NCBI GenBank assembly: GCA_032718475.1 | Contig: JAUCBJ010001719.1 | Span: 1 to 64,000, forward strand | DNA: 64,000 bases | Direction of reading: 5' to 3' | From: Nemertoderma westbladi | Taxonomy: Eukaryota > Animalia > Xenacoelomorpha | Shown here: positions 1 to 57,872 of the stretch, one piece after another | How positions within the stretch are numbered: position 1 is the stretch's first letter | Layout: the number at the start of each line of letters is the position of its first letter | Notes under the pieces: generated by a model | What the model was told of the DNA's origin: nothing | What the model saw: the letters and a program-made list of their open reading frames with translations, nothing else | Databases searched by the model: none | Translations under genes and position numbers: made by a program

Positions 1-1
1 G

Positions 2-2140
2 ACAAATAGTAAAGCCGCAGTTTCTCTATTGGAGCGGCCTTCTATTGACAAACAACCAGACGCGTTACTAGACGGTCAACCAGACATTTTGCCAGACACG
101 TCACTAGATATTTCGCCGGATGTTCCGCGAAACATTTTACCAGACATGTCACAAAATGTTCTACCAGACACTAGTAACATATTGACAAACAGTAAAGCCG
201 CAGTTTCCCTATTGGAGCGGCCTTGTATTGACAAACCACCAAATTTGACACACTTGAGCAACCATAAGCACAGTGAAACCTCATGTATTACAGATGTGGG
301 TAGTACCTACGCTAATGTAAATACAGGTGTTACTTTGCGCTCAAGAGACATACCAAACTTGCAACCTATGGTGAGACCCGGGATTAATATCGGCAGAAAA
401 ATAAGTTTATCGAAACCCAGTGACCCCATAGAGTTCAAACCACCATTAACGATCGACTTACAAAGTACTGACAACCAAGGTAAGAAAACAAAGAAGGACA
501 AATTACTTGTAGACCCGGACGGATTAACAGTCAACAAGGGAATACCTACCGGCGGACCCGTGGGCCCTTCTAGTAAATCAAAACCTTCCAAATTCTCCAT
601 TGACTTACCTGATGACGTCACAAATACTTACGTCGACCGTATTGTAAACCTAACAGATTCTTGGACAAACGCTTGCCGAAAATTAGCGTGGATTGTACGT
701 TTTGTACAATACGTTAAAGGCAAACGCGACTTTACACGTCGACTTACATTGACTGAGATTGACAGGTGTGAAATTAAATTAATTCGCCATTACCAACTGC
801 GATATTTCGCGCGCGAATTCACATCTATAAATCAAGGTCAACCAATCAAGTCGTCACCAATATTGAGTTGGAGTCCGATAATTTATAATGGCTTAATTTG
901 TCATAAATCTCGGCTTCAAAACATTGACTTTAACACAAACTTTAGATACCCAATAATAATACCGCAGCATCACGAATTACAACGTGCAATGATACTGGAC
1001 GCACATTTACATCTGAAACACGCTGGAAGACACCACTGTCTTTCCTACTTACGTACAAGATTTGTATTAATTAGACCCAGTAAAGCGTTAAGTTCAGTGA
1101 CACGTACGTGTATTATTTGTAAAAAGGTACATTCTAGAATAGGTACCCAAGAAATGAGTGAACTTCCACAAGCACGACTTCAAGCATTCAGACCACCTTT
1201 TACAGAGACTGGAATTGATTGCTTTGGTCCCATACATACGAAACGTGGACGTATACTAGTAAAACGCTGGGGACTGATTTTCACATGTATGTCCAGTAGG
1301 GCAGTTCATATTGAACGTGTGATGGATCTTTCCACCAACGCGTTTATACTAGCATTGCGGCGATTTATCGCTAGACGCGGACTAGTGAAATGCTTGTACT
1401 CAGACCAAGGGACAAACTTTGTTGGTGCCCGAAATGAAATTGCTAGAGCCTTTAAGAAATTAGATCATGATCAAATCTCAAACGAACTACGTCCTTACAA
1501 GATTGTTTGGAAGTTTAATCCTCCAGATAGTCCATGGAGAGGCGGAGTCTGGGAGAGATTGATTAGATCTATAAAAACAGCCATGGCAAAAGTAATTCCA
1601 GTAAACCACATTTTGACAGACGACCAACTGACAACACTGTTTGTTGAAATCGAGGCAATACTAAATACTAGACCAATAGTATTAGTACCCGATGACAAAC
1701 AATCCCAGTTTGCTTTGACACCGGCACACCTGCTTATGCAGGCACCGACTACATTGACGCCTATTTCTATTCCAATGGAAGGCGATAGCTACGGTAGAAA
1801 AGCGTGGAAAATCACGCAACTACTGGCTAACAAATTCTGGGAAATATGGCAAAACCATTATTTGCCCTCTATTTCTGCCAGAACAACATGGTACAATAAC
1901 ACCCGCGCATTAAAGCCGGGAGATCACGTGCTGTTAGCAGAAGTGAATCTAAAAAGACGCTTCTGGATAACAGGTGTAATTTTAGACACACATCCATCTA
2001 TGGATGGAGTGACAAGAACTGTGACGGTACGGACAATTGACGGTCGTACAGTAGACAGACCGACTCAACGTCTCGTACTTCTTGAAGAGACTCGTAACGA
2101 GTCTGGAGACTACAAATCTCCAACTAATGTTAGTAAATAA
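2..2140 (+). CDS. pol: BEL/Pao pol C-terminus: low-complexity linker, integrase zinc finger (HHCC), DDE core and C-terminal domain; open from the window edge
   Basis: Motifs HLHLKHAG...CIIC, GIDCFGP, FTCMSSRAVHIE, YSDQGTNFVGA, PWRGGVWERLIRSIK and LNTRP are typical of BEL/Pao integrase. Confidence 0.93.
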   Translation, partial: TNSKAAVSLLERPSIDKQPDALLDGQPDILPDTSLDISPDVPRNILPDMSQNVLPDTSNILTNSKAAVSLLERPCIDKPPNLTHLSNHKHSETSCITDVGSTYANVNTGVTLRSRDIPNLQPMVRPGINIGRKISLSKPSDPIEFKPPLTIDLQSTDNQGKKTKKDKLLVDPDGLTVNKGIPTGGPVGPSSKSKPSKFSIDLPDDVTNTYVDRIVNLTDSWTNACRKLAWIVRFVQYVKGKRDFTRRLTLTEIDRCEIKLIRHYQLRYFAREFTSINQGQPIKSSPILSWSPIIYNGLICHKSRLQNIDFNTNFRYPIIIPQHHELQRAMILDAHLHLKHAGRHHCLSYLRTRFVLIRPSKALSSVTRTCIICKKVHSRIGTQEMSELPQARLQAFRPPFTETGIDCFGPIHTKRGRILVKRWGLIFTCMSSRAVHIERVMDLSTNAFILALRRFIARRGLVKCLYSDQGTNFVGARNEIARAFKKLDHDQISNELRPYKIVWKFNPPDSPWRGGVWERLIRSIKTAMAKVIPVNHILTDDQLTTLFVEIEAILNTRPIVLVPDDKQSQFALTPAHLLMQAPTTLTPISIPMEGDSYGRKAWKITQLLANKFWEIWQNHYLPSISARTTWYNNTRALKPGDHVLLAEVNLKRRFWITGVILDTHPSMDGVTRTVTVRTIDGRTVDRPTQRLVLLEETRNESGDYKSPTNVSK

Positions 2141-2801
2141 TTAGGAGTTTACAAATAGATTTCCACGTACCTGTACACTGTAGTAAGGACAGCGGTAGAA
2201 TTCCATTGTCTTTATATGTGAACATTGAGGAGAGTACCCTTATGTGTCACATAGGAGCGGGATTTGTAGGTATAAGAAATGGAATTCTACTTGGAACTCA
2301 CAATATTGAGACATTTTCGAAATTTTAGACAATCCATTTGGATTTGAATAATTTTTAAAATTTTCTCCAGTGAATAGATTTCAGGGTACAGTCGGGTGGA
2401 ACTTAAAATTAGAGAAACAAGAGAGGAAGACTTGTGAGCCTTTCTTAAAATTTTAATTAAATTTTACACGGTCTTGTTTCAATAAGTTACGTCAATAAAT
2501 AGACTTCCCTATATTTATTACTAATTCTTGACTGCTTATTTTCTGATAATAGTTTGGGATCAAAAAGTGAGTATTTTAGACTCACAGCCAGTTTAGCCCA
2601 AATTCGTTTTTATTTCGGCAAAAAATTTTAGATAAGAAGCAGCGTGTCATTAAAGAAACCCTAGATCTTAGGCTATGGGTAGGAGGTTAGAGCGTTGTCG
2701 AGCCAAAAGGGCAGACGAAAACTCTCACATCTCCTCACAACTAACTACAAACTCTGTTGTATTCCCTCTAGTAGTATGATTATGTAACTACACTTCTAAT
2801 T

Positions 2802-4313
2802 ATGGAGAAAGGGATACAAGGAGAGCCGAGATGGGGATATGATATCCAAGAGGAAGCAGCAGCGCCATTCGAGAGATTTGGAGCCAAAGACTACACTATA
2901 TTTGGTATAAAAGAATTATCAGAAAGTACTGCGAAACTCGCGAGAACTAAATATGACTCGAATGTATTAAAGAGAAGGCAAAACGCATTAAATGAAAGAA
3001 TCGAAAGTTTGCGCAAAACCTTCAATGAACTTTACCCGTACGACGCTTTGTGTGATACGGGAGACATTAGCGAAGACCCCGATACTGAAATTAGTCGTTT
3101 GTATCATACCATGCAATACCTAAAGGCGCACGAACCTATGCCCGCGGTACGAGATGAATTCGATGGAATGCACCTTTACAGACGAACTCGAGGGGACGAT
3201 AGAGAAACCAAGGAAGCATTTTCAGTTTATAAACTTTATTATCAATGCGGTTCTTGTATGCGCGAACAACGAAATGCGATTCCGATGCGTTTGAATAAGG
3301 AAAATCCGAACCGATATTGGCGAGGTGTTCGAACCATCAACAACTACGCTACCAGGAAGGAGGGTATCCTTTATCAAATCCATATCATTCGTTTGCTATG
3401 ACTGGACCAAAGGCGGGAGAAATTGTCGTTTACCCACCTAAGGTTGTTGAACCCGATGCATTTGAACTTACGCTGGACGAGGCGAATCAGTCAACCCGCA
3501 AAAAGAAAGAAGCTCTTAGCCTATACAGAGCCTACAAGGCTTACGAGAAAGGTGAGATGGAAGAATGGGGCGGAAGACTCGCGAGCCTACCTTACCATTG
3601 GACGTCACACGATCAAACTTCAGCTAAGGAGATGACACCGGAAATTTTCGAAAGTATAAACTTTGCCCAAAATGTTCAATCGTATCACATATGGTGAATT
3701 TGACCGTTTTCGAACAGAAAAGCGAAATAAGGGAGCTTGGTTAACCGTCGCATGGGCGTACCGAGCCGCGTTTTACCACAAACGTATACGAGCGAGCGTA
3801 TTCGAGGAAGAGGAGATCCTAGAGGCGACAAATATACCAGCCACTCCGGTTGCGCCGTCTGCACGTCACCCTTGGGAGGACGGACAGGGTAGGATCATAA
3901 GGGTCCAGAAAGTGAGCCAACAATTAAAGAAGTCTATTAATATAGAAGAATGCAAGGGAGTTGAGCCAACCATTCGAATTACTCGGGATACGGTATCGCT
4001 TCCTAGAGAACCAACAGGAGGATCGGGACATACACCAGCTGATCAAAAGGGGGCGCAAGCTACTCTTGGGTCTGCGTCGTCCGCTTCCCGCGCGTTCCCA
4101 GACGTTTTACCAACTGTAGTGACAACTGATCGGTCACGAGGAATCGGTCGAGGTTTCGGGATACCAAATAGACGAATTTGCGAGGAAATAGTCACACCGT
4201 CTCCCAACGTCCAAACGAAACCAGTAACTCGCCCCACGAGTCCCATATCGCGAGCAAAGTCACCTGTGCGCAGTTTTCGAGGACGCGGCAGGGCTCGATC
4301 TACTAAGCGATAA
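2802..4313 (+). pseudogene. 3' accessory ORF of element A (unknown protein, ~500 aa, two frameshifts, basic C-terminal tail)
   Basis: Three overlapping ORFs (2802-3401, 3317-3697, 3663-4313) between pol and the PPT, with collinear similarity to the accessory ORF of elements B/C. Confidence 0.75.
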
Positions 4314-5142
4314 AAGGGAGGGCAAGGGTGGACGGAAGACTCTAAGATTTATATTTAGTAAGAATTTATATTTTGCAAGATTTATATTTTATATTTGTGA
4401 TTATTCCGAACTTATGCAATTTATATTGTTCCGAATATTATGCAATTTATATCTTATAAGCAGTATTTGTATTTACAGTGAAATAGAAAGTAAGAGTAGA
4501 TGGAAGACTCGTGGGCCTTTCTTATAGTTTCATTTGTAAAGTGTTATATTTGTATTTAGAAAGTTTTATAGTTAGAAAGTTTTGTACTTAGAAAGACTCA
4601 TATTTGTAATTATTCCGAACTTATGCAATCTACATTTAGGCACGAAAGTATTTGTAATTATTTGAATTTATGCAATATTTGAGATGCAATAGTAGATGGA
4701 AGACTCGCGAGCCTTTCTTATGATTTTCATTTATTTGTATTTGTAATTGTTTGAATTTATGCAATATTGAGATGCAATAGATTTATATTGGTGAATTTAA
4801 TTTAGATTGATATTGTACTTACTTAGTAAAGCCTTAAATATGTAAAGTTTGAATTTGTAATTATTTTGTATCGAATCATTATGTAGAAAGGAAGTATTGC
4901 TTGAAATTTAATTTGTAAATATGTAAGTACGCCCTAAGTATTCTATAATTTGATTGATTATTGGTGAAAACCGTATATTTTATGCACGATAATATCCTGT
5001 TTTCATGGAGCGGTATAGAATTATACTCTCTAAACGCCGTGGATTTTCAAAATTTTATTTTATTCGAATTAACTTTGTTAAAAGATTACATTAAGTCCTC
5101 ATTTGTATTTGCTATATCTATTTGTACGATGATTAGTCAAAT

Positions 5143-5227
5143 GGTTCAGTAGCTCAGTCGGTAGAGCGTTGGAAATTATATGTAGTGTGTATTGAGTTCG
5201 AATCCTAGTAGGCGCGAATTATTTTTT
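5143..5227 (+). ncRNA. tRNA-derived Pol III unit (A box, B box, oligo-T) inside the putative LTR of A; not a functional tRNA
   Basis: TAGCTCAGTCGGTAGAGC (D-arm/A box), GAGTTCGAATCC (T-arm/B box) and TTTTTT after it. The acceptor and anticodon stems do not pair. Confidence 0.7.
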
Positions 5228-5289
5228 GTGCAGAATTTCAACTAATTTAAATTGACCACTACAAATTAATTGCATTTGCTCGAAGTAAG

Positions 5290-5470
5290 ATTAACCAATG
5301 AGACTGTAGTTATTAGATTGTAACCAATGTCGTACGAGTTATATATTCGCTGGACCAATAGTTATCTTTAAAAACCTGTTAGAACTCATAGAACAATCGA
5401 GAATTTTCTCGATTGATTGCGGCACAAATTTGGTATAAAAGGTGCGATTTCGTTCATTAGTTCACTTCAC
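5290..5470 (+). promoter_or_regulatory. Pol II promoter-like block in the LTR of A
   Basis: Three CCAAT boxes (~5294, ~5324, ~5355), TATAAAA at ~5434 and a pyrimidine-rich Inr-like stretch ~25 nt downstream. Confidence 0.5.
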
Positions 5471-6914
5471 ACATTTCCCAATTATCATCTATCTCGGTAT
5501 TAGTTTATTTCAGATTACATTGTATACATTATTATGATTGTTGGTTATCTGTAATAAAGTCAGAATTATCGCTATATCTGCTCCTTTTCTATCTGTTTTA
5601 TCATGCTTCACCACGGTGAACTCAATTGAGGGACAGGATGGCTGGCTAAACATCGGGCCACAGCAATGAACGGGAACATCTAAGGAATGTAGACAGGAGA
5701 CAACCCGCAATATCACTCTTAGTTATTCGCCCATCGCCTGAAAGGTTAGACAGCGTTCGATGCCTTGCTACCTAAGTATAAGACCAAAGATCGAAGGTAG
5801 AGGTAGTGACACGCTGTACGCCTAAAATTACATCTAGGGACTGTACTGTTTTAATTCAGGAAAAAACCGCAGTAGACCTTCATATTCCTACGGGGGGGAG
5901 AGAGCAGGCAGAGATACTAGTACGCAGATAGGACATAGGCACACCGGTACAAGGCATACACATTGGTAGGGTGCAGCAAACTGTACGCCTAACTCTTGCT
6001 AAGTACAGGTGCGTCTGTGACTATTTGTAGTACAACGGTGTCCATTGCATTAGAACTTGTAGGCCAGGAGAGTTACTGTGTTTCACCTGAATTAGGATTG
6101 TACCGTTCAGGCGGTAGGGCAGTTTACGACTAGGCGCAAATAAATTGAGGCTATTTAGGGATACTAACATCTACCGTGTCCCCGCCGACATCCTGATAGG
6201 AAGTTACCAAGCCCACCTAGGTAACCAAAATTCTAGATAGGACGCCAGGCTAGCTATTAGTAACCGTACGCCTACTGTAGTAAACTAACACATTTCTTCT
6301 TAGTATTAGGGACCTGGTAAATTAAAATTGCCGAATTCTGGGCGTAGTATTAACCTTATGCCTGAATTTGAGTCCTGGAAATACGCAAGAGGGGAAGGAG
6401 CCTTATCATTCGTGAGTATTGGACCTACAAGTTATAAAATTAGAATATTTGTAAAATGCACACCGTACCCAGTAATTATATATATGAAGGAGCAAAACTG
6501 ATCTTGACTGTTCAGAATTAACACACGCGCGTTAGAAATTATTTACACCTCAAAATATATAAAATTAACTTTTGTCCGTACTGCACTTTGCCCGCTAGTT
6601 AGACATCTCTAGTCTCTTCTTTAGGCGTCTCTTTCGCCCAACCATATAAATCACACCGCGGCAAAGTATACGAGCCCCTTAGTCCGTCAGTGAGTCAGCC
6701 TGATTTTAGGATTCGCTGCGCGGGATTTTGTTTTATCGAAGTTTGTCTGTTCGTAGACTGTTTTCTGCCTCACCGGTTATAAGGGACCGATACTGCAATA
6801 TATATTCGCTTACTTGGAGTTTACTGTTTTGGTGAGAAGGGCGGATTTATGATTTGATTCACAAACTTTACAGTAAGATATTGCAGGTATTGTTACTGTC
6901 TCTTCCAAATAACG

Positions 6915-9900
6915 ATGGCCCAAGAAAGTTTTACGCGTCAAATGGCTAGAACCGAAGCCTGGCAAGCGGTAAAGGTGGGAGAGATCGTCAAGTTCAACGG
7001 AGATGAGATGAAATGGTTACCTTTTATTGAATATTATAAAGATAACATACAGAACTCTGTGCTATCTAATGGAGAGAAGCTTAGATTCCTCATCGAGTGC
7101 TTGGAAGGATCTTCCAAGTTAATGGCGTTAAAGTTTATGATGGATTAAGACAAGTTTGGGATACACTAAACATCAGGTATGGTAATAGGAATAACATGGC
7201 TAGGTATTTGTATGCGAAATTGGTAGCGCCACGAAAGTTTCTTAGCAGCGGGATTATAGAATTTTCCGATGAGATCCAGGATATTTGTAGACAATTAGAT
7301 TGGCTAGGTAAGTCTCATGAGTATCAGAGTTCTATGGTTATTGGAGCTGTAGCATCTACCTTGCCAAAGAGTGGAGTAGGTACTCGTTGGGACAAAAGAG
7401 TTCTATATATGATGGAACAACAACGAAGAGACCCTACCATGGCTGATCTCATGTCATTCTTAGATGGAGAGGTAAAATTACAGCTCCTAAAGCAGTCCAG
7501 AGAGAAGACACCGGAAAATAAGGTAAGTGAAAAACCCGTTTCTAGGAGAAAGGTAACACCAGTGTGTTATACAGACGACGGCGAAAGCCAGACCTCTCAA
7601 GAGGAGAACAACGGGAAAGACACCAAAAGATCTTACTATGTCAACAAAACACCTAAAGACGTAAGTAAATTTAAGTCTCGAACCAGTGACAGGAGAGAAC
7701 AGGTAACAAAAACTCCTCCTACGTCTCCCAAGAGAGTTCATGGAAGAAAGCCCGAGGAAAGAACGAGTGTGCACAACATTACCCAAGGTAAAGTATGTAA
7801 CATCAAACCAAAATGTGCATTGTGCGACGGGCCCCACCGTTTAAGTGTGTGTGATGAATTCGGCGAACCTGTTACTCCGATGCGAGGTGTGCTAAGTGCG
7901 GCGCGAAACATCATATCTTGTTGCACACCGAATTGGAAAGAAACAGCCGGAGTCAGGTAAGTGAGTCTGAACTACATGTCCAATTCAGTGATGTGAACGA
8001 TACTGACCAAAGTTCTGAGATGGAAGGATTCTACACGGATGAATTCTCCGACGAAAATGAATCCTGTTATCTAATAAACACCGCAGTGTATCGAGCGCTT
8101 ACGTATGAGACCGAAACCGATAACGAAGCGCACCCGGTTATTCCTGACCGACAACCATCCTGGAAAGCACCAACTTCCAACGTCGGAATCCGGGAATTCC
8201 CCGTAGTTCAGCTAAGAGTCCATGGGTCGAGTAAGAGTTTTATAGTCAACGCACTCCTGGACTCCGGCAGCACAGGAACGTTCATCGATAAAGAACTAGC
8301 CGAAGACATCTTTGCAGGACAACCCAAGTTCCGAACTAAGTTGAACCTTTCAGGAATTATGCAGGTTTGGAAATCTACCGTAGCTACAGACTACTATGTA
8401 GGTGCGTTGTCCACTCCCCAAGACGAACTAGGAGAACACAGTATAAGGTCAGTAAAAATGGTGGTGATAAAGAACTTTGCTACCAGCCAAGTAGAACCTT
8501 ACAACTGGGATGAAGACGATTTTACCCAGCAATATAATATCCCTAGATTCAACACCGACTACTCAGGGGTGCAAATTTTAATCGGCCAAAATGCGCATGA
8601 GGCGCTTGAGACATTAGAGAAACGACCTGCTCGACCGCAACCATTGCAAACTTATGCGGGAAGAACTAGAGTAAGTTGGTACTTCACTGGACCTTCCCGT
8701 AGAATGCTCATGGAAAGATTACCCCCTGAACAAGTGCACCAGGTGAGTGAATGGGAAGAAGAAATCAGTGAGGGAGAAATCACACCTGAGGGAACACCAT
8801 ACTCCTCAGATAACGACGATATTACCCAGCTATTTGACGAGGAAAATACGATAGACCTCCTCACTGAAAGTGAAGCTTGGAGAAACCAAGTGCACCTTTG
8901 CCATCTCATCCATCATGGCGGACAACTCAATTATGACGATGAGCTAAATGAGGTGATAGATCGACATAATGCTAAGATTCGTGACGAACACGCCGTACGA
9001 TTCTTTACTCAAGAAGCTGTAGAACCTAATTCCTACGACAAAGCACTATCAGTCAAGGAGGAAAGAGCCAAGCAGATCCAGGCAACGACTACACGTTTCC
9101 TTAGGGATCAAGGGAGGTATGAAATTGGTCTGCCATTTCGAATGCGAGAACCTAATTTTATAAATAACCGACCCTTGGCTGAGAAAAGAATCGCTCAACT
9201 ACATCGACGTCTTACGGCAAACGCTTCAGCTAAAGAGATGTACAAGACACAGCTGAAGAAATTCATCGATAAGGGATATGCGGAGCGAGTACCAGAAGAA
9301 ACACCCATAACTGAGAGAACGTATTATTTAACGTTACCAAACCCGGTAAACCCAACGAAGTTCGGGTAGTATTTGACGGCTCCGCCCTCTACATGGGCCA
9401 ATCCCTTAATTCGGAGTTGTTGCCGGGACCCAACTTACTCCAATCCTTGTTGGGAATACTCTTAAGATTACGGCAATATTCGATCGCCTTCGCCTCAGAT
9501 ATAGAAGGCATGTTCTTACAAGTTAAGGCGCTGGATAGGGATCGAGACAGCCTGCGATTTCTGTGGTGGCCTGAAGGAGACCTCAGCCAAAAACCTGTGG
9601 AGTACTGGATGACCATCCAGGCTTTCGGAATCATCTCGAGCCCCTCGAACGCCTGTTCAGTAGTGCGCACCACTGCTGATGACAACCGAGACACCTTCTC
9701 TAAAGCGGTTATCGACAACATCAAACGGGATATATACATGGACGATAATTTAAAGTCCCTCCCATCGGTGGAAGAAGCCATTGATGTTGCCAAGGGAATG
9801 GTAGAGTGTTTAAAACGTGGTGGATTTCGACTAACTAAATTCACCAGCAACTCCCATGAGTTTCTGGAATCGATCCCGGTAGAAGACCAAGGAGTTAAAG

Positions 9901-12614
9901 ATCTAGACCTAATCAAGGATGATCTTCCAGAAACCAAGACGCTTGGTTTGAAATGGGACACGGAGAGAGATATCCTGTTTTTCCAGCAGCGAGATAATCC
10001 AGTTCGAACTAAACTGATTTGTCTAAGTATCCTGAGCACTTATTTCGATCCATTGGGAATCATTAGCCCAGTTATATTGGTTGCTCGGAGTTTAGTTCAA
10101 CAAATGTGGCTTGAAAACCACTCGTGGGACGATCCACTTAAGGGAGAACTACTAAAGAAGTGGATGAAATGGGAAGATTCTCTATCATCCATCGAGAAAT
10201 TTATGATTTCCCGTTCATATTTTGGTCAGTCATGTTCTTCCAATGTATTCGTATCAACTCCATGTGTTTGGAGACGCCAGCAATATGGGAATAGGTATAG
10301 TAGCCTACCTGAGGGTTGAAACTCCGGATGGAATTAAAGTTGCCTTGGTTACCTCTAAGGCCTTGATAAACAACAAGCTACGAGTTCCTCGAGTGGAGTT
10401 AAAAGCGGCTCTATACGCTACAGCCATCGGCCGGAATGTCACAGAACAGATCGACTATCCACTGGAGAAAACTGTCTATTGGACTGATGCTTTACTCGTT
10501 TTGGAGTATATAACCAATGAAGTCTGTCAGTTCAGCGTCTTTGTTACCAACAGAGTAGCCGTTATACTTAGTCGCACTAGTGTAGATCAATGGAGACATT
10601 GCCCTGGGACGATTAATCCAGCCGACATTGCCTCCAGAGGAGCAACTCCTCAAGAACTGGTAGACACTCCGGACTGGTTAGGTGGACCCGACTTCCTAAG
10701 TAAAGAAGAAGATGAATGGCCTCCTCATCTTACCACGGCTGAGATTAGACAAGCCAAGGGAGCAGAGAAAGTCAAACCTAAAACCCGGACGAGTAAATCG
10801 AAGTTATTTAAACCCGTGATAGATCTGTCTGTACTACATCTTTCCGGAGACGACGCTGTGGATCTAAACTTCCCCGCCACAAATAAGTCTGTTGTGGAAA
10901 TCAGAGAGAGAGACTGGAAATCTGGAACACCAGACGTTTCGCAGGGACTCTCACCTCTCCTACAGAGGGCGATACATCACTATAGCTCCTGGAATAGGCT
11001 TTGTAAGGCCGTTGCGTATTTGAAGCGATGCTTCCATTATCACTACTCCAGGATGAAGATCACTAGTGATACCGCTCCACCGACATCTGTGCAGGTCCAT
11101 GCTATTAAAGATCTTCCCAAATATAAAATCTCAGATAGGTTTCTGACGGAGAAGATCAGTTACCAGGTGCATGAAGAAACCAATAAGCAGATACTGAGAC
11201 TCCTGCAATGCTATGAAGATTCCGATAAGTATTTCCTGTAGTTGAGAAATCCACAGATGCGCTTAAGGGATCGTTTCTCTAGCACAATGATAGATGGGTT
11301 AATGTTGGAGGGAGACTAACTAATGCTCCATTATCCTTTGACACTAAGTTTCCCAAACTTATTAGAAATCTTGAAATACAAATCAAGATGATTGTAGATG
11401 TTCACAGTAAGCTTTACCATGCTGGTAGAGAACGAGTTCTTAGCGAAATTCGAACTCGCTATTATTTTCATAAACCCCGTAGAGCTCTGAACCAAGTTCT
11501 TAGGAACTGTATACCCTGTAGGAAAGCATTCAGTAGGCCTTTAACACAGCGAGAGGTAGAATTACCTAGGGAGTGAGTAAGCTTCTATGAACCACCCTTT
11601 ACTAATACCGGTGTGGATTTATTTGGCCCTATTGAAGTATATCGTGCCAGGACTATAGTCAAGCGATGGTGTGTCATCTTTTTCTGTATGACTTGTAGAG
11701 CGATCCATTTAGATATGGTGAACGATCTATCTACCAACAGCTTCATACTGAGTCTACACCGACAGATCGCTCGCTTTGGAACTAGCAACACTATGAGATC
11801 TGATAAGGGGACGAACTTCATTGGGGCCAATAATGAGATCAAGGCTTACGTTAGAGATTGGAACCAAAGACAGGTGGACGATCAGCTAAGAGTAACAGCG
11901 TCTAGCTGGACATTCAACGCCGCCGACGCCCCTTGGTGGGGAGGAAGTTGGGAGAGATTAATAAGAAGCATGAAGACCGCATTTCACTTTATAGTGCCGT
12001 GCCGCGCGTATCTCACCGACGAACTTTTGCGGACGTTAATGGAAGAAATCGCCGCCTATCTTAACGAAAGACCGCTTATGCCAGTCTCATCGAGTCCCGA
12101 CTCCCTGGAAGCGCTAACACCCGCGCACTTCCTACTGAAGAAACCTGTAGCCATGCTCCCCCGATCGGAAATCACGGATGGAGATGAATACTGCCGACAA
12201 ACTTGGCAACTTATGCAGTTATTATCCCGTCGTTTCGCTGACCATTTCGAAAAACATTATCTGCCCATGCTACAACTTCGAACCAAGTGGTTTGCGCAGC
12301 AAGAAAACGTCAGCGCCGGAGACATGGTCCTTATTTTGGAAACAGATCTTCCATGTAAGCGGTGGCAGACAGGTCGTATCATCGAGACTCATATCTCAGA
12401 TGACGGTTTAGTGCGATCGGTAGAACTCGTCGTCATGCGACGTAACTTTAAGAAACCGGGAATTGTATTCGAAACACAGCAGCTCAATCGCCCAGTTGGT
12501 CGTTTATGTTTACTGGAGAGAGACAGAGAACTGTCCGGAAACTATGGAAGGCAAGATACTCTTCCCACGACCACCTCCCTAATCCAACAGACATCTAGGG
12601 ACTCCCCAACGTAA
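6915..12614 (+). pseudogene. pol: BEL/Pao gag-pol polyprotein with frameshifts, stops and deletions
   Basis: gag FNGDEMKWLPF; protease ALLDSGSTGTFI; RT SDIEGMFLQV and YMDD; Pao RNase H LHVFGDAS, RVELKAA, WTDA, NPADIASRG; integrase DLFGP, SDKGTNF, WERLIRSMK. The second gag Zn knuckle is deleted at ~7861 relative to C. Confidence 0.93.
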
Positions 12615-13140
12615 TAGCGTCTGGAGTGGGTGTGTGACCATATTATTTTATATTCGTTTTTTATTATTTTTATATTTAGGTATGTATTATTATGTAATTT
12701 TATAATAATCGTTTTCTTTAATTTTATTTAGTAGAATGTTATTTTAGCGATTATTTAGTAGATTAGTGCAATATATACTCGTGTTTATTACTTAATTACT
12801 TATATTATATATTTAGTGCAACGGCGAGAAATACTTCTTTTTTCTCTTTCCTTACTGTCTGTATCATATTATAAATGCGTGACTACAGTAAGATGAAATA
12901 TCCGTACTTATTAAAGTACAATAAAGCTCCTACTATACTTAAGTATTATTGGTAAGTAGAGTATTAGGAATGCAAAGTTCAGATCCTCGTGTCTCGGCTA
13001 AACCAAGCTCTGGGTAGACCTTGGAAATGACTTGCCTCTTCTCACTGACATTGCTTCTTGCAATATTGCTCTCATACCGTATATTAAATAATACATATAG
13101 TAGTGTGATGTCCCTTTAACAGTAGCGTACAACGCAAATA

Positions 13141-13531
13141 AATCTGTTAAACCCTTTGACCATCTTTAATTCTAGTCGATTAAGATATCGCGGCACCCAC
13201 CGATATACTTGAAAGACAAAATTTCTAGAATCAGTGGTTAACGTCCCCAGACATGTTCTGGAATAAATCGGTGCCCATCCTAAATATTACATAGTTAATA
13301 TTTATAAAAATCTATTAAAACAAATGTTATAATAGAGTAAATGCACGCAAATAAACTCTAAGGAGTTTGTAAACCGAGAAAATCTATAAATCAAGATCTG
13401 TTAAAATTTAGATCCTTTAAAAATTCTAGTCGATTAAGATATCGTAGCACTTACCGATACTCTTAAAAGGACAAATTTCCTAGAATCAAGGATCCTAGTC
13501 CCCAGACATGCTCTGGAATAAAATTGTGCCT
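13141..13531 (+). ncRNA. Two tandem copies of a ~135-nt structured RNA motif between pol and the accessory ORF (element B)
   Basis: Copies at 13141-13276 and ~13396-13531 with nested pairings and a fully exchanged outer stem; also present twice in element C. Confidence 0.65.
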
Positions 13532-14342
13532 ATTTAATATTAAATAATAAAATTTACGGGAATAAATTTAAATTCATATCTTCTCATGAATTTGATAAAT
13601 TGTATTTTATACAATTTATAATATTCCCAAAATTCTTTTAATTAATAGATCATGGGAGCGGAGATTCACCCTATTAAGTGTATTAGTGTGCGAGAATCTC
13701 CAATATATAGTCAATAGCCGATAAAATTCATAAAATCATGTATAAAGGGGAATATTGACAATTAAAGAATTACTATTAAATAGCATCCCAGATCTGTATG
13801 CATGAGAATTACCCTAATTCTACTGCTAGCTTTCCATAATGTCACCATGGCAACAACCACGCTAGAATTAGAAGTGAGTTAAAAGAACAATAAAAAGCTT
13901 GCCCCATTGAATAGCATACGGAATAAATAGCGCACTGCTAGTATCCAGAGATACATAATAATAACGTGGCATTCTGGAAGGCACTTGACTAACGGACAAA
14001 TGGCCCAAAGGTGTACAATTTGTGACAGTTGTGTGGAATTTGTGCGTTTATAGGTGAATGTTACTACTAAAGTGTGTTTACAGTAGCGAGTCGCAGTTGT
14101 GAAAGTAGCCCTAACCCTGCAGTAAGAACCTGAAGTAAATCTAAGCCCTTGGGACGGACAGTGGAGTGACTCGCGCTGGTTGTTGTTGTCATTGTGCAGC
14201 TACTACGTTGGCGATAGACACAGCGGTGACAGTACATCAGCGCTGAGGATCTTGCGCTGTCCGGGGGCTGTGAGGGGTAGGCAGCGACGCCCGCTAGCCT
14301 AATTATAATTAATTATAATATTGATAAACTCATATAGCAGCT

Positions 14343-15101
14343 ATGTCTGAGTTGATAGAAGATGATCTGGTATCAGGGAGCAATATACCCTACCATTGCA
14401 AGCGTTGTTGATAGTTTAATACGCGGTGACGCTAGTCCCTCTACTACGGAGGACGATGGCTGTTATATCGAACCGCCAATGTCCAAGGAACAACTCACGC
14501 GTGAATTGGACTATAGAAAATTCACCGCTCGCTATACGCATCGTAATGGTACGTATATAGACTTCTTTACTACTGGCCATCCTATCGATTTACACGATAT
14601 GGACGATGTAGACACCAAAAGGGAAATGATCCTATTTAAATATCATACCCAGCGCAGTCGGAACAATAAACTGAGAATCGAACACGAAAATTCTATTCGA
14701 AACTAACTCGAAAGAGAAGACGTTAAAGAACCGGATAAACGCAGTGACTTCAACGTATCTTTGGAATTCTTGAGAGAGACATTGTAAAACTGGAGAAAGA
14801 TCACCAGCATTTCCCCTACAAGACGTGCGTCTTTGGTATTATTACGATGAATGCCCTAGACCCAACCAACACACGGAAAGACATAAACATCCGCGGAGAC
14901 GTTGCGCTAAACACAGTTTTTACTCGCTATACTTACGGGAGTTTCGAGCGAAACTTGTTCGACGTATCACCTACGCTCGCTCGACGCAAACAATCCTTAA
15001 ATAAACCGATGATCAGAGTTCCGGAATACTCGGTCAGACCTCCTCATTCCCTAGTGAGACCTCAGACTCTTGATCCTAATAGTATGACGGATCCTCCTGA
15101 A
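14343..15101 (+). pseudogene. Accessory ORF of B, first (partial) copy
   Basis: Near-identical to 17774-18532; ends at the gypsy fragment. Confidence 0.75.
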
Positions 15102-17295
15102 TTCCTGATTCCTCGAGCGATGCCGGACCAGCGGTATCTGTCTACACCCCGCTAAAGTGCAACTCGCTCAACACGAAGTCTAGTTCGGTGGCTTCCTAGT
15201 TGGGGCCGACGGCATCCGCGTTGATCCGAATAAACTCTAGGCCATCGCCTGCTTTCCACGACCGGATAATCTCACTGACCTGCGGAGCTTTGTGGGCCTT
15301 GTGGAGCAATTGGCTCCGTTCTCCGCATCCATTGCCAAGTCAATACTCCCACTCCGACCACTCCTCAGCATTAAATCTCAATACATATGGACCAGCGACC
15401 ATGAACGAGCATTTGTCGCGACCAAAAACGCTCTCACTTCGCCTCCAGTCCTGGCTCCATTCGACGCATCACACGAAACTCGCCTTGTTACGGACGCTTC
15501 CCGCCTCAAAGGACTGGGCTACGCGCTCCTACAACTCCACGATACCGAGTGGAATCTTATCGAATGTGGATCCCGCTTCACAAGCGACACCGAGTCACGG
15601 TACGCCACAATCGAACTCTAACTCTTGGCCGTTGTCTGGGCGGTTACCAAATGCCGCACTTTCCTCCTCGGGCTCCCACACTTTCAGCTGGTCACTGACC
15701 ACCAGCCATTGGTGAGCATTCTTAACACCAAAGGTTACAGCGACGTCGACAACTCCCGCATACAACGGCTAAAGTCGAAACTCGCCCCCTACATTTTCAC
15801 CACCACGTGGTGCCGCAGCAAGGACCATGCCATTCCCGATGCGCTGTCACGTTCCCCCGTGGACCAGCCCACCACTGCGGACCTTGTGGAAGATGGTGAA
15901 ACCGCTTTCCACCTCCGCACCATCACTCTCGGTACCGTCTCCTCCATCGCCGGGGACGACCATCTGGAGGACCCCGTCCTCGCAGAATTTTCAGTGGTTG
16001 CCAGGGAGGACCCACACTATGTGGCTCTCCACACCGCGGTTCAGACCGGTTTCCCCCCCACTTCGCGTAATGACCCCGCAGTGGGCATCTATTGGTCGAT
16101 TCGAGACTCACTCACCACCGACGGTGACCTAGTTCTCTACGGCCAGCGTCTTATTATCCCCGCAGCAGCACGCCAGACTACTCTGGAACGCCTCCACACT
16201 CCTCACCAAGGCGTTGATAAATCGCTGCGACGAGCCCGGCAGTGCGTCTACTGGCACGGGCTCACCAATGACGTCAGGACATCAGTGGCCAGCTGCCCAT
16301 CCTGTTTACGCCACCGGGCGACCCCGCCCAAAGAACCATTCCTGGAGGAACCCCCACCCACCCGCGTGTTCGAGGACGTCTCTGCAGACTTCTTCTCCCT
16401 CAATGGTCGCCACTTCCTCGCTATGGCGCACCGCTACAGTGGCTGGCCGGAGCTATATACATTCCCAAGTCCTCCAAATGCCATTCAAACCACCAACGCC
16501 CTCCGCCAGTGGTTTATTCGATACGGCATCCCTACCCGGCTCCGCTCAGACGGCGGAACACCACTCACAGCCGCCACAACTACCGACTTCCTACGTGAGT
16601 GGGGCGTTACCCCGGTTACCTCATCTGCGGAATACCCCCAGGGTAATGGTCATGCTGAGGCCACGGTAAAGGCCCTCAAAGGCCTCCTCAGCAAAACGGG
16701 AGGGTCCCCAAATTCGGCAGCTTTCACTGAGGGTCTCCTGGCCCTCCGTAACAGCCCGCGTGAGAGCAGATTCTCGCCGTCCCAGATCCTTTACGGGCAG
16801 CCACTACGAACACGCATTCCCGCGCACCATAGTGCCTTCAAATCAGACCACCAGGCCGCTAGGCGGCGCCTGGACGAGGTCTCCCCAGCGTTACACGCTG
16901 CCCGAGTCACCAACTACAATAAAGCGGCTCACAACCTCCCTCCCCTTGCAGTCAACGACCCGGTCCTCATCCAGGACCCCCGTACCAAGCGGTGGAACCG
17001 CAAGCGTACGGTTGTAGAGGCTGGACCCCACCGGAAACTCACGGTCCGGACCCCCTCCGGCTGCACCATCACCCGGAATCATCGGTTCCTACTCCCTCCC
17101 AGTGACACCTCCCTCCCAGGGTCTTCCGGCGATGCCAAACTCCTGGCCAATACACCAGCGGCCGCGGCAGACATTGACTCATCCCGGCCACCTAAAACTG
17201 TCACATGGGACCACCAGCTGGTCCAAGCCCACACAAGCCCAGCACAACCCCGCAGATATCCCTCTAGGCGCAGAAAACCACCTGTGCGTTTATAA
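15102..17295 (+). pseudogene. pol: Ty3/gypsy pol fragment with in-frame stops
   Basis: LVTDASRLKGLGYALLQ, YATIEL*LLAVVWA, LVTDHQPL, IPDALSR, LHTPHQG...CPSC, VSADFF, LRSDGG, YPQGNGHAEATVK. Confidence 0.9.
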
Positions 17296-17600
17296 CTCGC
17301 TACACACGAGCTCGAAGGGGGGTGTAGTGACATCAGGACTTCAGACTATATTACATGGCTCGCCCCATATACATAGGCCATGCGACTACTGATATATAGG
17401 ACTCAGTACTAACTGCAGTATCACGGTTTTACATAGTTTGGCCTTGGGTATATCTCCGTACTGCATGCATCAGTACTGCATGCACTACCGGGATACATTG
17501 CACTTCTGTATGTGGACATTTATATATTATATATTACTGTATTATACAGCCAGATATGTTGCTATATTATTACTTTACTATAATCTCTATAGAATCTAAA
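15102..17600 (+). mobile_element. Ty3/gypsy retrotransposon 3' fragment (RT end, RNase H, integrase, PPT, partial LTR)
   Basis: GC-rich block; PPT GAAGGGGGG (17314-17322) followed by TGTAGTG; no 5' LTR, gag, protease or YxDD. Confidence 0.88.
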
Positions 17601-17640
17601 AAAAACCACAGGGGGGGGGTGGGTGGGGCTGGAGGAAGGG

Positions 17641-18532
17641 GGCGATAGACACAGCGGTGACAGTACATCAGCGCTGAGGATCTTGCGCTGTCCGGGGGCC
17701 GTGAGGGGTAGGCAGCGACGCCCGCTAGCCTAATTATAATTAATTATAATATTGATAAACTCATATAGCAGCTATGTCTGAGTTGATAGAAGATGATCTG
17801 GTATCAGGGAGCGATATACCCTACCATTGCAAGCGTTGTTGATAGTTTAATACGCGGTGATGCTAGTCCCTCTACTACGGAGGACGATGGCTGTTATATC
17901 GAACCGCCAATGTCCAAGGAACAACTCACGCGTGAATTGGACTATAGAAAATTCACCACTCGCTATATGCATCGTAATGGTACGTATATAGACTTCTTTA
18001 CTACTGGCCATCCTATCGATTTACACGATATGGACGATGTAGACACCAAAAGGGAAATTATCCTATTTAAATATCATACCCAGCGCAGTCGGAACAATAA
18101 ACTGAGAATCGAACACGAAAATTCTATTCGAAACTAACTCGAAAGAGAAGACGTTAAAGAACCGGATAAACGCAGTGACTTCAACGTATCTTTGGAATTC
18201 TTGAGAGAGACATTGTAAAACTGGAGAAAGATCACCAGCGTTTCCCCTACAAGACGTGCGTCTTTGGTATTATTACGATGAATGCCCTAGACCCAACCAA
18301 CACACGGAAAGACATAAACATCCGCGGAGACGTTGCGCTAAACACAGTTTTTACTCGCTATACTTACGGGAGTTTCGAGCGAAACTTGTTCGACGTATCA
18401 CCTACGCTCACTCGACGCAAACGATCCTTAAATAAACCGATGATCAGAGTTCCGGAATACTCGGTCAGACCTCCTCATTCCCTAGTGAGACCTCAGACCC
18501 TTGATCCTAATAGTATGACGGATCCTCCTGAA
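17641..18532 (+). repeat. 892-bp direct duplication of 14210-15101 flanking the gypsy fragment
   Basis: Constant offset of 3431; about 10 substitutions by eye. Confidence 0.95.
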
Positions 18533-19325
18533 CTGTACTCATTGTTCAAAGATCTGGTGTTACCCGAACAATTAGTCGATGGCATCCGGTTGTGGGCTCC
18601 CTAGATATTCGCCCATCCTACCTAGCCGGATTGAGACGCGGACATTTAATATCGCCGTTCAACCCGTATAATCGTACCAGTTTAACCCCGATACAACCTG
18701 TCACCGAGGTGGAGGAGAGAGTTGAACGAAACGCGTTAGACACTAGTCGACAAAAGATCGGAAAAGGAACCTACGATTGTTTAGAGAAACGTAAAAGGCA
18801 GCAGCAAGTCCAAGCGGTAAACGAATTAGCTTTATCTCAGTTCGATCGGGAAATCCAGAACCTCGAAGAAGATATCGAACTTGGACGACCCTACTCTCTG
18901 AAAGAGTTTTGGACGAATGCTTCCAACGACAAGCGGAGGAAAATCAGCTCGAGGAGAAGCATATCGATTCCAACAGAGCCCGAGAATGCGAGTCGGAAAG
19001 AACCATCAATCCGAGGAAATTTCTCACTACACACGGTCCACCTACCGCTCTCATGCAAACGACCCGTCAGGGACCAGTAAGGGCTGCTGTCTTAAAACGC
19101 ACTCTCAAGGTTGTTCAACCTCATTCCACTGAGGTTGATACCGATCAACCGGGTACCTCGACCGGCGGACACATCGACCGTAACCCTAAACCTTCCGATG
19201 CAATTGTATTGCACCCTTCACCCAGGAGTTATAGCCCTCCTAGTAAAGTGGCTCGCCCGGAAGAGATAAGGACTCTTGCTAGCCTCAAAAAACCGCGTAA
19301 ACGCCGTTCTCGTAAGAAAGACTAA
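17774..19325 (+). pseudogene. Accessory ORF of B, second copy (frameshifted, internal ~170-bp deletion relative to C), ends KKPRKRRSRKKD
   Basis: ORF fragments 17793-18137, 18278-18604, 18592-19080 and 18909-19325 are collinear with element C 56352-57872. Confidence 0.78.
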
Positions 19326-19403
19326 CTGTTTAGAGTATTTTTATATTTTAGAAACTGTGATTTTTTATATTTTATAGAATTAAATCCCATTTTCTGGGAG
19401 CGG

Positions 19404-20631
19404 TGTAAAAGCTTTTGCGGATATAACCAGTCATTTTCTCCGCAATTAACTGTTTAGTTGTTTTAGCGGACATAACAAGCCATTTTCTCCGCAATGTACC
19501 CTGTAGGTGTTTTAGCGGACATAACAAGCCATTTTATGCCGCAATACGCCAAATACTCTAAATAGAGTGTAGTTTCAGATGACGAAATCTGTCAGCTGAT
19601 TTGCTGTCGATGTGGAACTTTCTTTGTTCAGGCTCGCTCGACCAATCAGAGCGATTTTCATTTTATTTGCACAGAGGCCTATGGGAAAACGCGCAATGCA
19701 TTACGGTCTTTGTTTACCTTTCTGAGCGAGAACAACTGCTTGGGAATTCTTCTGTACTTCTGTGTTGGAAGTTTCAGACTTTGGCCAGCATTAGACGGCT
19801 TTGATTACAAGAACGTAAATCTATTATCTGCAAACCAAACTACCAACTGCGGTACCGGTACTACCGATACTGCACCTGTCAACTTGTCAACCGATCACCT
19901 GCACTGCGCAACTGTGCAACAAACTGGTCAACTGGCTGACTATCACCGCATTATTTTACTTCTGTTTACTGTCTGTTATTAATGGTTATATGTTGATGGA
20001 TATGTTGTTATATTTGGAGAATATCGATAAATAATCATAAAACCCCCAATCTTCTTGATTACTAAAGGTTAGAGGGACCGGTTACCGGTAGCAATTGCGA
20101 CTTACATTACAGTGGTTTTAGTGTGCATCAAATGCTATTTCATAATCCCTACATGTGTCAGTTGCTATCCTCCTTATATATGATCAAATTCAGTGACGGT
20201 AGGCAGATCAGTGTGAAACAGTGTGAAGTCGTGTGCAGTAGTGTGACAGATAATAAAGCATCTCCTAAAGAATGCGCTATTTACGAAAATCAGTAGCCAT
20301 CTCGTTGTGTTTAGTATAAGTCATAACTCTGTTTTATACTTAAAGCGCCACGTCCTAAAGGAACTGTTAATATTTCCTTGAAAGTGAATAATATTGTCAG
20401 AGATTATATAGTAACAATCAATCGAATAATACAGTAGGTCTGCAACGCAATAAGGTCAAAGCATCCGAATCCAGTCTCCCTTAACTGTGGGTGAATGATC
20501 GCGCATAGACTGGCTTCGGCTAATGTTACTTCATGTGCATTAAATAATTGCTATAGGCTAAAGTCGATTTATAAACAAGAGGACACCTAAAATTGGCAGG
20601 TTAAACTGCTAAAGGTCTGAAAGCGCGAACA
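19404..20631 (+). repeat. 3' LTR of element B (1228 bp)
   Basis: Preceded by CTGGGAGCGG; starts TGTAAAAGC and ends GCGCGAACA like the LTRs of C; three imperfect repeats with a GCGGA(C/T)ATAAC core near the 5' end. Confidence 0.92.
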
Positions 20632-25117: not shown

Positions 25118-25602
25118 CCAGGTTGGAATTTATGTAGAGTTTGCTCAACATGTGTGGCGCGCATTTAGGATCCTGGCGCGAAGGAACAGGGGCGTGTGGC
25201 GCGCATTTAGGATCCTGACGCAAAGGAACAGGGGCGTGTGGCGCGCATTGAGGATCCTGGCGCGGAAATGGATGTCATGTACAGTAGCAAAATGCATTGG
25301 CATGGCAACATATCCAGCCACTCTAATTGAAATTATATCGGTCTACCAGTAGAGTCTATTTTTAAAAAGAGTTAGGCCTAGGCCTTAAAGATTTTCGCTC
25401 ACTTCGGTCGCGTTTGTATATTATATGCCTGCCCACTGTACGCTCTACTGTGTCTACTCTTATTCATCATTCTAATAACTTTTAATTTAAAAATTTAATG
25501 GTCAATCTTTCAATGGTTGGCGCGCTTTGAATGTCATGGCTGGCGCGCTTTTCGTTTAACCCGAATCCGTGTGGCGCGCTTTTTGTCAATATTCCATATA
25601 GG
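25118..25602. mobile_element. hAT-like MITE (485 bp)
   Basis: Ends CCAGGTTGGAAT...ATTCCATATAGG (imperfect TIR); 8-bp TSD GAGCAGAC; TGGCGCGC subterminal repeats. Confidence 0.75.
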
Positions 25603-30261: not shown

Positions 30262-30746
30262 CCAGGTTGGAATTTATGTAGAGTTTGCTCAACATGTGTG
30301 GCGCGCATTTAGGATCCTGGCGCGAAGGAACAGGGGCGTGTGGCGCGCATTTAGGATCCTGACGCAAAGGAACAGGGGCGTGTGGCGCGCATTGAGGATC
30401 CTGGCGCGGAAATGGATGTCATGTACAGTAGCAAAATGCATTGGCATGGCAACATATCCAGCCACTCTAATTGAAATTATATCGGTCTACCAGTAGAGTC
30501 TATTTTTAAAAAGAGTTAGGCCTAGGCCTTAAAGATTTTCGCTCACTTCGGTCGCGTTTGTATATTATATGCCTGCCCACTGTACGCTCTACTGTGTCTA
30601 CTCTTATTCATCATTCTAATAACTTTTAATTTAAAAATTTAATGGTCAATCTTTCAATGGTTGGCGCGCTTTGAATGTCATGGCTGGCGCGCTTTTCGTT
30701 TAACCCGAATCCGTGTGGCGCGCTTTTTGTCAATATTCCATATAGG
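30262..30746. mobile_element. hAT-like MITE, duplicate of 25118-25602
   Basis: Same ends and GAGCAGAC TSD. Confidence 0.75.
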
Positions 30747-56351: not shown

Positions 56352-57872
56352 ATGATTGAGTTGATAGAAGATGATCTTGGTATCAGGGAGCGATATACTC
56401 TACCTTTACAAGCGTTTGTTGAAAGCTTGATACGCTGCGACGCTGGTCCAACTACTACGGAGGACGATGGTCGTTATATCTAACCGCCAATGTCCCGGGA
56501 GCAACTTGCGTGTGGGTTGGACTGTAGAAAATTCACCGCTCGCTATACGCATCGTAATGGTACGTATATGGACTTCTTAACTACTGGTCATCCTATCGAC
56601 CTACACGATACGAACGATATAGACACCAAAAGGGAAATGGTTTATTTAAATATCATACCCAGCGGAAGCGGAACGATAAACTGAGACTCGAACACGAAAA
56701 TTCTATTCGAAACCGACTCGAAAGTGCAGATGTTGAAGAGCCGGATAAACGCAGCGACTTCACCAAAATATCTGGAATTCTTGAGAGAAACATATCTCGA
56801 TATTACCAGTCAACAGAATCTAGAAACTCGATATCCTCAAGGTATACATCATGACCGCATGGTAGAACTCAAACGGCTCTATTCCACTATGATGTATCTT
56901 ACCGCCGATCGATCGCTACCTGTTGTACCGGATAGCTTCGAACAGATGGAGGAATATTGTAAGCTGGAGAAAGATCACTCGCGTTTCCCCTACAAGACGT
57001 GCGTCTTTGGTATTATTGCGATGAATGCCCTAGACCCAACCAACAAACGGAAAGACCTAAACATCCGCGGAGACGTTGCACTAAACACGGTTTTACTCGC
57101 TATACTGGCGGGAGTTTCGAGCGAAATTTGTTTGACGTATCACCTACGCTCGTTCGACTCAGACGATCCTTAAATAAACCAATGATCAGAGTTTCGGAAT
57201 ACTCGATCAGACCTCCTCATTCCCTAGTGAGACCTCAGACTCTTGATCCTATTAGTATGACGGATCCTCCCGAGCTGTACTCACTGTTCAAAGATCTAGT
57301 GTTACCTGAACAATTAGTCGGTGGCACCCCGGTTGTGGGCTTCCTAGATATTAGCCCATCCTACCTAGCCGGATTGGGACGCGGACATTTAATATCACCG
57401 TTTAACCCTTACCATCGTCCCGGCTTAACACGATATAACCTGTCACCAAAGTGGCGGAGAGCGTTGTACCCAATGAGTTGGACGCTATTCTACAAAGATC
57501 AGAAAAGAACTTACGCTTGTTCAGATAAACGTAAATTGCACTAGCAAGTCCAAGCCGTAAACAAAGTAACTTTATCTCAGTTCGATTGGGAAATCCAGAA
57601 TCTCTAAGAAGTTATCGAACTTGGACGACCCTATTCTCTGCGAGAGTTTTGGATGAACGTATCCAGCTACAAGCGGAGGAAAATCAGCTCGAGGAGAAGC
57701 ATATCGAAACGGCGGATACCCCAACCATAATCCTACACCTTCTGATACAATCATATTGCACCCTTCACCCAGGAGTTATAGCCCTCCTAGTAAAGTGGCT
57801 CCCCCCAAAGAGAAAAGGACTCTTGCTAGCTCTAAAAAACTGCGTAAACGCCGTCCACGCAAGACAGACTAA
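56352..57872 (+). pseudogene. 3' accessory ORF of C (frameshifted)
   Basis: Collinear with B 17774-19325; retains the ELKRLYSTMMYL block shared with element A. Confidence 0.78.

Follow-up and report, generated by a model that had tools for sequence, protein, structure and literature searches.

A selected, non-envelope third ORF in the env position of sister BEL/Pao elements: a candidate nuclear factor that regulates the RNA of its own element

Among BEL/Pao retrotransposons, roo and Cer7 are elements that carry Env genes. In the literature that we found, the extra genes reported so far for this family are captured envelopes: according to the available part of PMC9094657, Atlas has a phlebovirus-like Gc with a C-terminal transmembrane helix and Tas a gB-like Env, and env is the only third gene mentioned in the ICTV profile (PMC8742986) and in the available portion of a survey (PMC3118150). 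No description of a non-Env ORF3 in BEL/Pao was found in the literature searched, and prior annotation, e.g., in Repbase/GyDB, is possible. Other LTR elements carry third genes of different kinds. CERV, of the Ty3/gypsy element Cer1 of C. elegans, is a 517-aa protein made from a spliced mRNA and needed for genomic RNA export, and it has an L-x6-L-x6-L-x6-L repeat in a helix-hairpin-helix as well as a KRKK signal (PMC10309623, in the part available). As far as the accessible text of the respective reports goes, bdelloid LTR elements have non-Env ORF3s of the DEDDy exonuclease, GDSL esterase and coiled-coil types (PMC5408684), plant elements have extra ORFs after pol and before the 3′ LTR, e.g., Grande gene23 with its nuclear product (PMC7264820), and small membrane ORFs have been described for Ty3/gypsy (PMC11952523).

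The window, i.e., the whole stretch of 64,000 nt that was analysed, is repeat-rich eukaryotic DNA with three BEL/Pao elements (A, B and C), all of them on the + strand. A, B and C each have an ORF that follows pol, in sense, and precedes the 3′ LTR; the name ORF3 is used for it here. The three elements and the parts of A that flank its ORF3 are:

1 to ~5611, + strand: element A, whose 5′ end lies outside the window
~6900-20630, + strand: element B, BEL/Pao
47630-59101, + strand: element C, bounded on either end by an LTR of ~1150 nt (TGT...ACA), with a CACTG target duplication and pol mostly deleted
2..2140, + strand: 3′ part of A pol, an integrase region with an H2C2 zinc domain and DUF5641
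5007..5611, + strand: purine tract (GGAGCGG, as in B/C) and probable 3′ LTR of A, the right end being approximate and taken from the drop in matching contigs

In the pol part of A, Pfam matched DUF5641 (E 2e-21) and Integrase_H2C2 (E 1.5e-4), and in B the domain order was DUF1759, Asp protease, RVT (weak), Peptidase_A17 and DUF5641, i.e., a Pao-type gag/pol with PR-RT-RH-IN. The LTRs of 0.2-1.2 kb, target duplication and purine tract by which BEL/Pao elements are recognized were all present in C, with the GGGAGCGG tract, and the two LTRs of C were unlike at 8 of 1152 positions; of A and B the window has the 3′ LTR only. A tRNA-Arg/Gly primer-binding site is a BEL/Pao trait in the ICTV profile (PMC8742986), and in C, which alone of the three elements could be tested for a tRNA-type site, no TGG followed the 5′ LTR. 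The first 10-11 nt after this LTR (48781-48791) were complementary to a stretch of the element's own LTR (48060-48070), just past a TATA-like word, and an 11-nt match arose in 7 of 2000 shuffles. We take this primer site to resemble Tf1-type self-priming, and no description of self-priming in BEL/Pao was found in the literature searched. We class C as BEL/Pao by gag/pol descent, with an atypical primer site. Primer processing had been one of the roles proposed for ORF3; the one link is the co-occurrence with the self-complementary site of C, and ORF3 gave no nuclease match.

Several other repeats were observed in the window. Another member of the B/C family starts at 61676 and runs off the window (61676-64000), its LTR being 73-76% identical to that of C and its 5′ region 87%. 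The long pol-ORF3 spacer of B/C has a ~165-nt direct repeat, at 55247-55529 and, in the corresponding part of B, around 13160-13540. A 3.8-kb duplication (22228-26025 and 27380-31169, 99.2% identity) ends in arrays of a 12-nt unit, and satellite arrays are formed by a 49-nt unit (x50, 43792-46266) and a 170-nt unit (x6.7, 33309-34441). An Rfam search of 2100-7000 gave no match.

The ORF3 of A runs in sense from an ATG at 2802 to a stop at 4313 and starts 662 nt past the pol stop. The first-pass annotation had assigned it to the env position, and its location between pol and the 3′ LTR of a BEL/Pao element, with counterparts in B and C, confirmed this assignment. In copy A the ORF lies in three pieces:

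2802..3305, + strand: piece 1, 168 aa, with the ATG in a strong context (A at -3, G at +4)
3308..3676, + strand: piece 2, in another frame, with the RKKK motif
3693..4313, + strand: piece 3, a low-complexity Ser/Pro/Thr/Arg-rich end with a basic tail and a net charge of +12 in the last 56 aa
3676..3692, no strand: junction with loose contig ends and depth changes, a probable internal deletion in the window copy

ORF3 is broken in all three window copies. Copy A was compared with public contigs of five runs, i.e., four DNA runs, from three studies under a single species label, and a fifth run whose RNA nature is a guess; this fifth run had a share of 0.10 on copy A, with patchy contigs. Family A proved abundant, since 7375 (X1) and 2970 (X3) contigs match copy A. 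In contigs of 4/4 runs the length differed from that of the window near 3305, the sole indel place listed in the ORF, which puts the first frame break near 3305 rather than at 3345, where it had been placed before. Because of this position of the break, the stretch previously quoted as 'PNRYWRGVRTIN' is probably out of frame, and the second of the three blocks of similarity proposed at that time was probably read mostly in the wrong frame. At 3676-3681, contigs of other copies departed from the window on both sides and ran on with unlike sequence. In both X3 and X4, contigs had loose ends to the left and right of the junction, together with a depth dip in X1-X3 and a depth jump in X4, and in an X4 contig of 1887 nt, 817 nt matched 2861-3676 and the remaining 1070 nt were without match to this stretch. 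In the simplest reading, the window copy of A has probably lost 1 kb or more of internal sequence at ~3677, the alternative being a recombinant joint. Because of this deletion or joint, past which other copies continue with unlike sequence, the size of ~500 aa given earlier is not established for family A. In X4 the summed depth was about ten to twenty times higher to the right of ~3677 (3678-5600) than in pol or in the 5′ half of ORF3, which suggests a non-autonomous derivative, present in high copy number, that retains the 3′ part. In addition, contigs with joints from 2446 to ~4400-4600 were present in X1 and X3, and these represent variants without any ORF3.

The counterparts in B and C, and the block that A has in common with C, are located as follows:

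2973..3197, + strand: block 1, common to A and C (A aa 58-132, 24/77 identical, P~1e-6)
17774..19325, + strand: ORF3 of B, with frameshifts and a stop; 163 nt of C are absent, block 1 among them
14343..15101, + strand: truncated duplicate of the B ORF3, before a nested Ty3/gypsy fragment
56352..57872, + strand: ORF3 of C, with frameshifts and stops; 193 nt of B are absent; block 1 is at 56766-56975

The truncated duplicate is part of an 892-nt duplication of B sequence (14210-15101 vs 17641-18532, 98.9% identical). The Ty3/gypsy fragment in the B ORF3 (15101-17640) has an RNase H, an integrase, a probable LTR and a GC content of up to 60%, and with its flanking duplication it looks like the outcome of recombination, not of an ordinary insertion.

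As had been noted before, A could not be aligned to B/C as DNA: blastn of A (1-5700) against the rest of the window gave no match at E<=0.1. When piece 1 of A was searched as protein against all six frames of the window, the best score (91) was in the ORF3 of C, and 30 shuffled piece-1 queries gave best scores of 46.8 ± 5.1 with a maximum of 65; furthermore, in an A-C alignment with an X at each break, the score of block 1 was reached by 0/1000 shuffles. Hence, the similarity claimed for block 1 passed the shuffling check. B is without block 1 because of the 163-nt deletion. The collinear similarity over three blocks that had also been claimed did not survive, block 1 alone passing. Past block 1, the local alignment had P=0.42, and the anchored global alignment over blocks 2 and 3 was reached by 19.6% of 1000 shuffles with the original framing and by 35.5% with the break at 3305, so that block 2, largely out of frame, and block 3 are both at chance level. 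A weak local match between A2 and B2 (P~0.01, one of 12 tests) was rejected, since it pairs non-equivalent regions. Both ORF3s do end in basic tails, as stated earlier, and the likeness between the tails of A and B/C is in composition only. As judged by these alignments, the homology of ORF3 between A and B/C is significant in one helical block only. If the two ORFs were unrelated captures, and block 1 a product of chance or of a common helical composition, one would expect little more than the 75 of roughly 500 residues that align, with the rest at chance level; we consider this very improbable, however, given that the best match in six frames of 64 kb is the same-position ORF of the sister element, with a score far above those of the shuffles.

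The sister relationship comes from a FastTree analysis of 64 integrase regions, in which A and B were grouped with a support of 0.999. The tree contained A, B, L001, the best 60 of the 120 pol relatives listed and the Ty3/gypsy of the window as outgroup; the pol relatives, all found with A as the query and limited to polyproteins of at least 1247 aa, come from fish, molluscs, echinoderms and tunicates, and on their strength the host is taken to be an animal. The integrases of A and B are identical at 141/320 positions (44%). The description of A and B/C as two distant families is thus right about their divergence, but each is the other's closest relative in the tree. Because A and B are sisters, sharing across lineages is the less simple account; most simply, and likely, the gene was captured once, in the common ancestor, and then inherited vertically. 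Six of the seven nearest relatives checked had 193-1336 nt outside the polyprotein on their contig (the seventh, on a long contig, was uninformative), and in L001 the + strand past pol contained no ORF of 80 aa. These observations hint weakly at a restriction of ORF3 to the A-B/C clade, the contigs of the relatives possibly being cut short.

We then considered selection. Over 409 codons, the ORF3s of B and C differed with a dN of 0.107 and a dS of 0.215, which corresponds to a dN/dS of 0.50 (bootstrap CI 0.35-0.73), below 1. The N-terminal part gave 0.37 (0.18-0.74), the intervals of the other four parts included 1, the wrong frames gave 0.71 and 1.11, and gag gave 0.17 and 0.13; post-insertion decay raises these ratios. 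Among copies of family A, 23 of the 40 ORF3 differences listed (45 more are unlisted) were at third codon positions (p=0.0014), the share among those listed being 8/9 in piece 1 (p=0.001), 4/9 in piece 2 and 11/22 in piece 3 (p=0.08). One indel place was listed in the 1512-nt ORF vs 48 in the 5700-nt stretch, the two run sets differing by one run. These results indicated that ORF3 is coding and under purifying selection, which is weaker than that on gag and strongest in the half that contains block 1. Both the B/C ratio and the third-position excess in family A bear out the earlier view of a selected gene, and its description as old and selected agrees with one significant common block and purifying selection.

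The first-pass annotation had also argued that ORF3 is not an Env. In none of the ORF3 pieces did a 19-residue stretch exceed a hydropathy of 1.25 (maximum KD19 0.56-1.25), and no transmembrane anchor was detected in the parts present in A, B and C. No signal peptide was seen by hydropathy, the only measure used: the N-terminal maximum KD11 was -0.06 in A and about 1.4-1.5 in B/C, where the frame is uncertain, and an upstream exon is possible. Each copy has 3-6 Cys and no Cys-rich ectodomain, and 0/9 ORF3 pieces matched the Env families of Pfam at E<=1. The nine pieces gave no Pfam match to the DEDDy exonuclease or the GDSL esterase either, and no known domain rose above the cut-off; the sole match, HydF_tetramer (E 0.06), fell below it and was discarded. 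In the parts present, ORF3 lacks envelope features, and the argument that it has no signal peptide, transmembrane helix or Cys-rich pattern, and is no Env, holds for them on the strength of hydropathy, Cys counts and the lack of a fusogen match in Pfam. An Env whose membrane parts had been deleted from all window copies would fit the position, the candidate splice acceptor described below and the 1 kb or more of sequence that A has probably lost. It would fit poorly with the hydrophilic N- and C-termini, the 3-6 Cys per copy and the helical block 1, and the deletions of B and C are in different places, neither copy having a transmembrane stretch (maximum KD19 0.57 in B and 1.25 in C), so that we regard a deleted Env as improbable.

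Relatives of ORF3 were then sought among known proteins. A word-index protein search, among longer proteins only, yielded 0/299 candidates for piece 1 of A and 0/134 for block 1 of C. A HMMER profile of A and C had 0 matches at E<=0.001 among 1.84 billion representatives, PDB sequences gave 0 at E<=10, and no match was obtained in the ESM Atlas (two pieces), in IMG/VR and phage records, or in JGI metagenomes (0/215 stretches); the collections searched are poor in animal repeats, and these blanks do not prove absence. AlphaFold2 with 2- and 4-row alignments returned unusable folds (pLDDT 40 and 36), and Foldseek against BFVD found 0 at E<=0.001 with the pLDDT-40 model, which is too poor to be meaningful. 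ORF3 could be a captured viral structural or nucleocapsid-like protein, packaged with RNA via its basic tail, or a non-Env aid to the cell-to-cell movement of particles. The Env position, where viral genes have been captured several times by BEL/Pao (PMC9094657, in the part available), and the Arg/Ser/Pro-rich tail would be in keeping with such an origin, as would the codon use in A, which is slightly unlike that of pol (NCG codons 39/130 in ORF3 vs 25/173 in pol, p=0.002). This codon signal, however, was not repeated against pol/gag in B or C, where the comparison is unreliable because the pol/gag frames are partly wrong and some contain stops, and there was no match in BFVD (with the pLDDT-40 model), IMG/VR, PDB sequences or the 1.84 billion representatives. 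We hold this origin to be unlikely.

Three further features of A bear on what its ORF3 may do:

2740..2771, + strand: candidate 3′ splice site for the ORF3 of A (CTAAC branch motif, pyrimidine tract, TAG)
2967..3032, + strand: L-x6-L-x6-L-x6-L heptad, A aa 56-77, in a predicted long helix
2425, 3572 (inside ORF3), 4502 and 4698 (span 2425..4714), + strand: a 17-nt imperfect palindrome, centred on CpG and present in four copies

The candidate acceptor has 12/15 pyrimidines, the highest value of the three candidates that passed among 53 spacer AGs. Its end at 2771 is 30 nt upstream of the ATG, and other copies show indels between 2771 and the ATG, as fits untranslated sequence; the use of this site in splicing is a prediction. 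The acceptor candidates of B/C, with 10/15 pyrimidines and without a branch motif, are weak. The heptad arises in 11/5000 shuffles of A, a low-confidence model of A has a helix at 53-77, and this zipper leads into the conserved helical block 1. It is complete only in A, B/C having a hydrophobic counterpart only for the second half. Basic motifs of the K(K/R)xK type were found in A (RKKK), B (KRKR, KRRK and RRKR) and C (KRRK), and all three ORF3s have Ser/Pro-rich basic tails.

Our preferred reading is that ORF3 is a selected non-envelope accessory gene that encodes a nuclear RNA-export regulator of its own element, and to this explanation as a whole we assign a probability of about 0.4. The gene would have been acquired once, in the common ancestor of A and B/C, and would be expressed from a spliced sub-genomic RNA. 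Its protein would act in the nucleus, the predicted helical domain (block 1) would let it self-associate, its basic segments and tail would bind the unspliced RNA of the element, and the bound RNA would be exported with its help, in the way that CERV serves Cer1. Splicing to an internal acceptor leaves an element with the need to export its unspliced RNA as well. The broad class, a soluble nuclear nucleic-acid-binding regulator, is somewhat favoured; RNA export in particular would be the likeliest job, and is put forward tentatively, with the odds against it. The "nuclear or nucleic-acid-binding factor" proposed before is plausible, its basis being the basic tails, the NLS-like motifs and the zipper. 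The preferred reading draws on the selection, homology and descent described above, on the acceptor-like site and zipper of A, on the basic motifs and tails of A, B and C, and on the precedent of CERV in Cer1 (PMC10309623, in the part available). It is weakened by the fact that neither sequence nor structure ties ORF3 to CERV, Rev or RNA-binding families, by a zipper that is complete in A only, by the lack of a Cys finger like that of CERV, by the weak acceptors of B/C, and by the fact that basic motifs are common in Arg/Lys-rich tails. Moreover, at least 1 kb of family A is probably absent from the window, and a domain in that stretch could alter the interpretation; the nearest pol relatives, too, seem to get by with no space for such an ORF, which would not then be a general need.

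The palindrome raises a different prospect, in which ORF3 binds DNA sequence-specifically, at repeated sites in its own element, and serves as an anti-silencing factor or a transactivator. Plant VANC and foamy-virus Tas are models for such proteins. There are four matches to the 17-nt palindrome in A, around and inside its ORF3, vs 0 in each of 100 shuffles; a helical, dimer-like domain and basic tails would suit a DNA-binding protein, and selection weaker than on gag is expected for a gene in conflict with the host. The palindrome is absent from B/C, however, no DNA-binding family was matched, and the CpG o/e of 0.88-1.35 in the coding parts and LTRs of the elements shows no depletion, so that DNA methylation may not be a barrier here. 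We view this prospect as doubtful.

Returning to the export regulator and its wider setting, A and B/C may belong to a "complex" belpaovirus lineage, i.e., a BEL/Pao clade with a new family of trans-acting regulators in the env slot, spliced like env and either Rev/CERV-like or anti-silencing on the repeated 17-nt site, plus tRNA-independent self-priming. This is a speculative proposal that we would hesitate to favour; if true, it would give Belpaoviridae their first non-Env regulatory gene within the literature searched. A soluble selected orphan kept across a divergence to 44% integrase identity, in a family with thousands of matching contigs per run, would show retrovirus-style accessory regulation in BEL/Pao, and ORF3 would supply a new protein family for the study of transposon RNA export or silencing evasion in animals. 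Without a function, ORF3 is another orphan third ORF, of a kind known from rotifer and plant elements.

Compared with the BEL/Pao Envs, ORF3 shares their element family and their place after pol and before the 3′ LTR, but its parts present have no signal peptide, transmembrane anchor, Cys-rich ectodomain or Pfam match. The bdelloid ORF3s (PMC5408684, in the part available) are likewise lineage-specific, separate third ORFs, found where env would sit in invertebrate LTR elements; they belong to the Juno, Vesta, TelKA and Mag clades, whereas the BEL/Pao ORF3 has no DEDDy/GDSL match and its purifying selection is measurable. The plant additional ORFs, as described in the accessible part of PMC7264820, are also conserved orphans with a proposed regulatory role, but they are found in Ty3/gypsy and are antisense to gag-pol, whereas ORF3 is in sense and in an animal BEL/Pao element. 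With CERV, again as far as the available text of PMC10309623 goes, ORF3 has in common that it is an accessory protein of an invertebrate LTR element, without known homology outside its lineage, and, for ORF3 as putative features, a length of about 500 aa, a leucine zipper in a helical hairpin, a monopartite basic signal and a spliced mRNA. CERV differs in that it has exons in common with gag, contains a G-like domain as well as a Cys finger, and belongs to a Metaviridae element; its function has been shown, whereas that of ORF3 is predicted, and no sequence link between them was found among the representatives and PDB sequences. If it resembles any of these systems at all, ORF3 would work like CERV or the nuclear additional ORFs of plants, as a member of neither.
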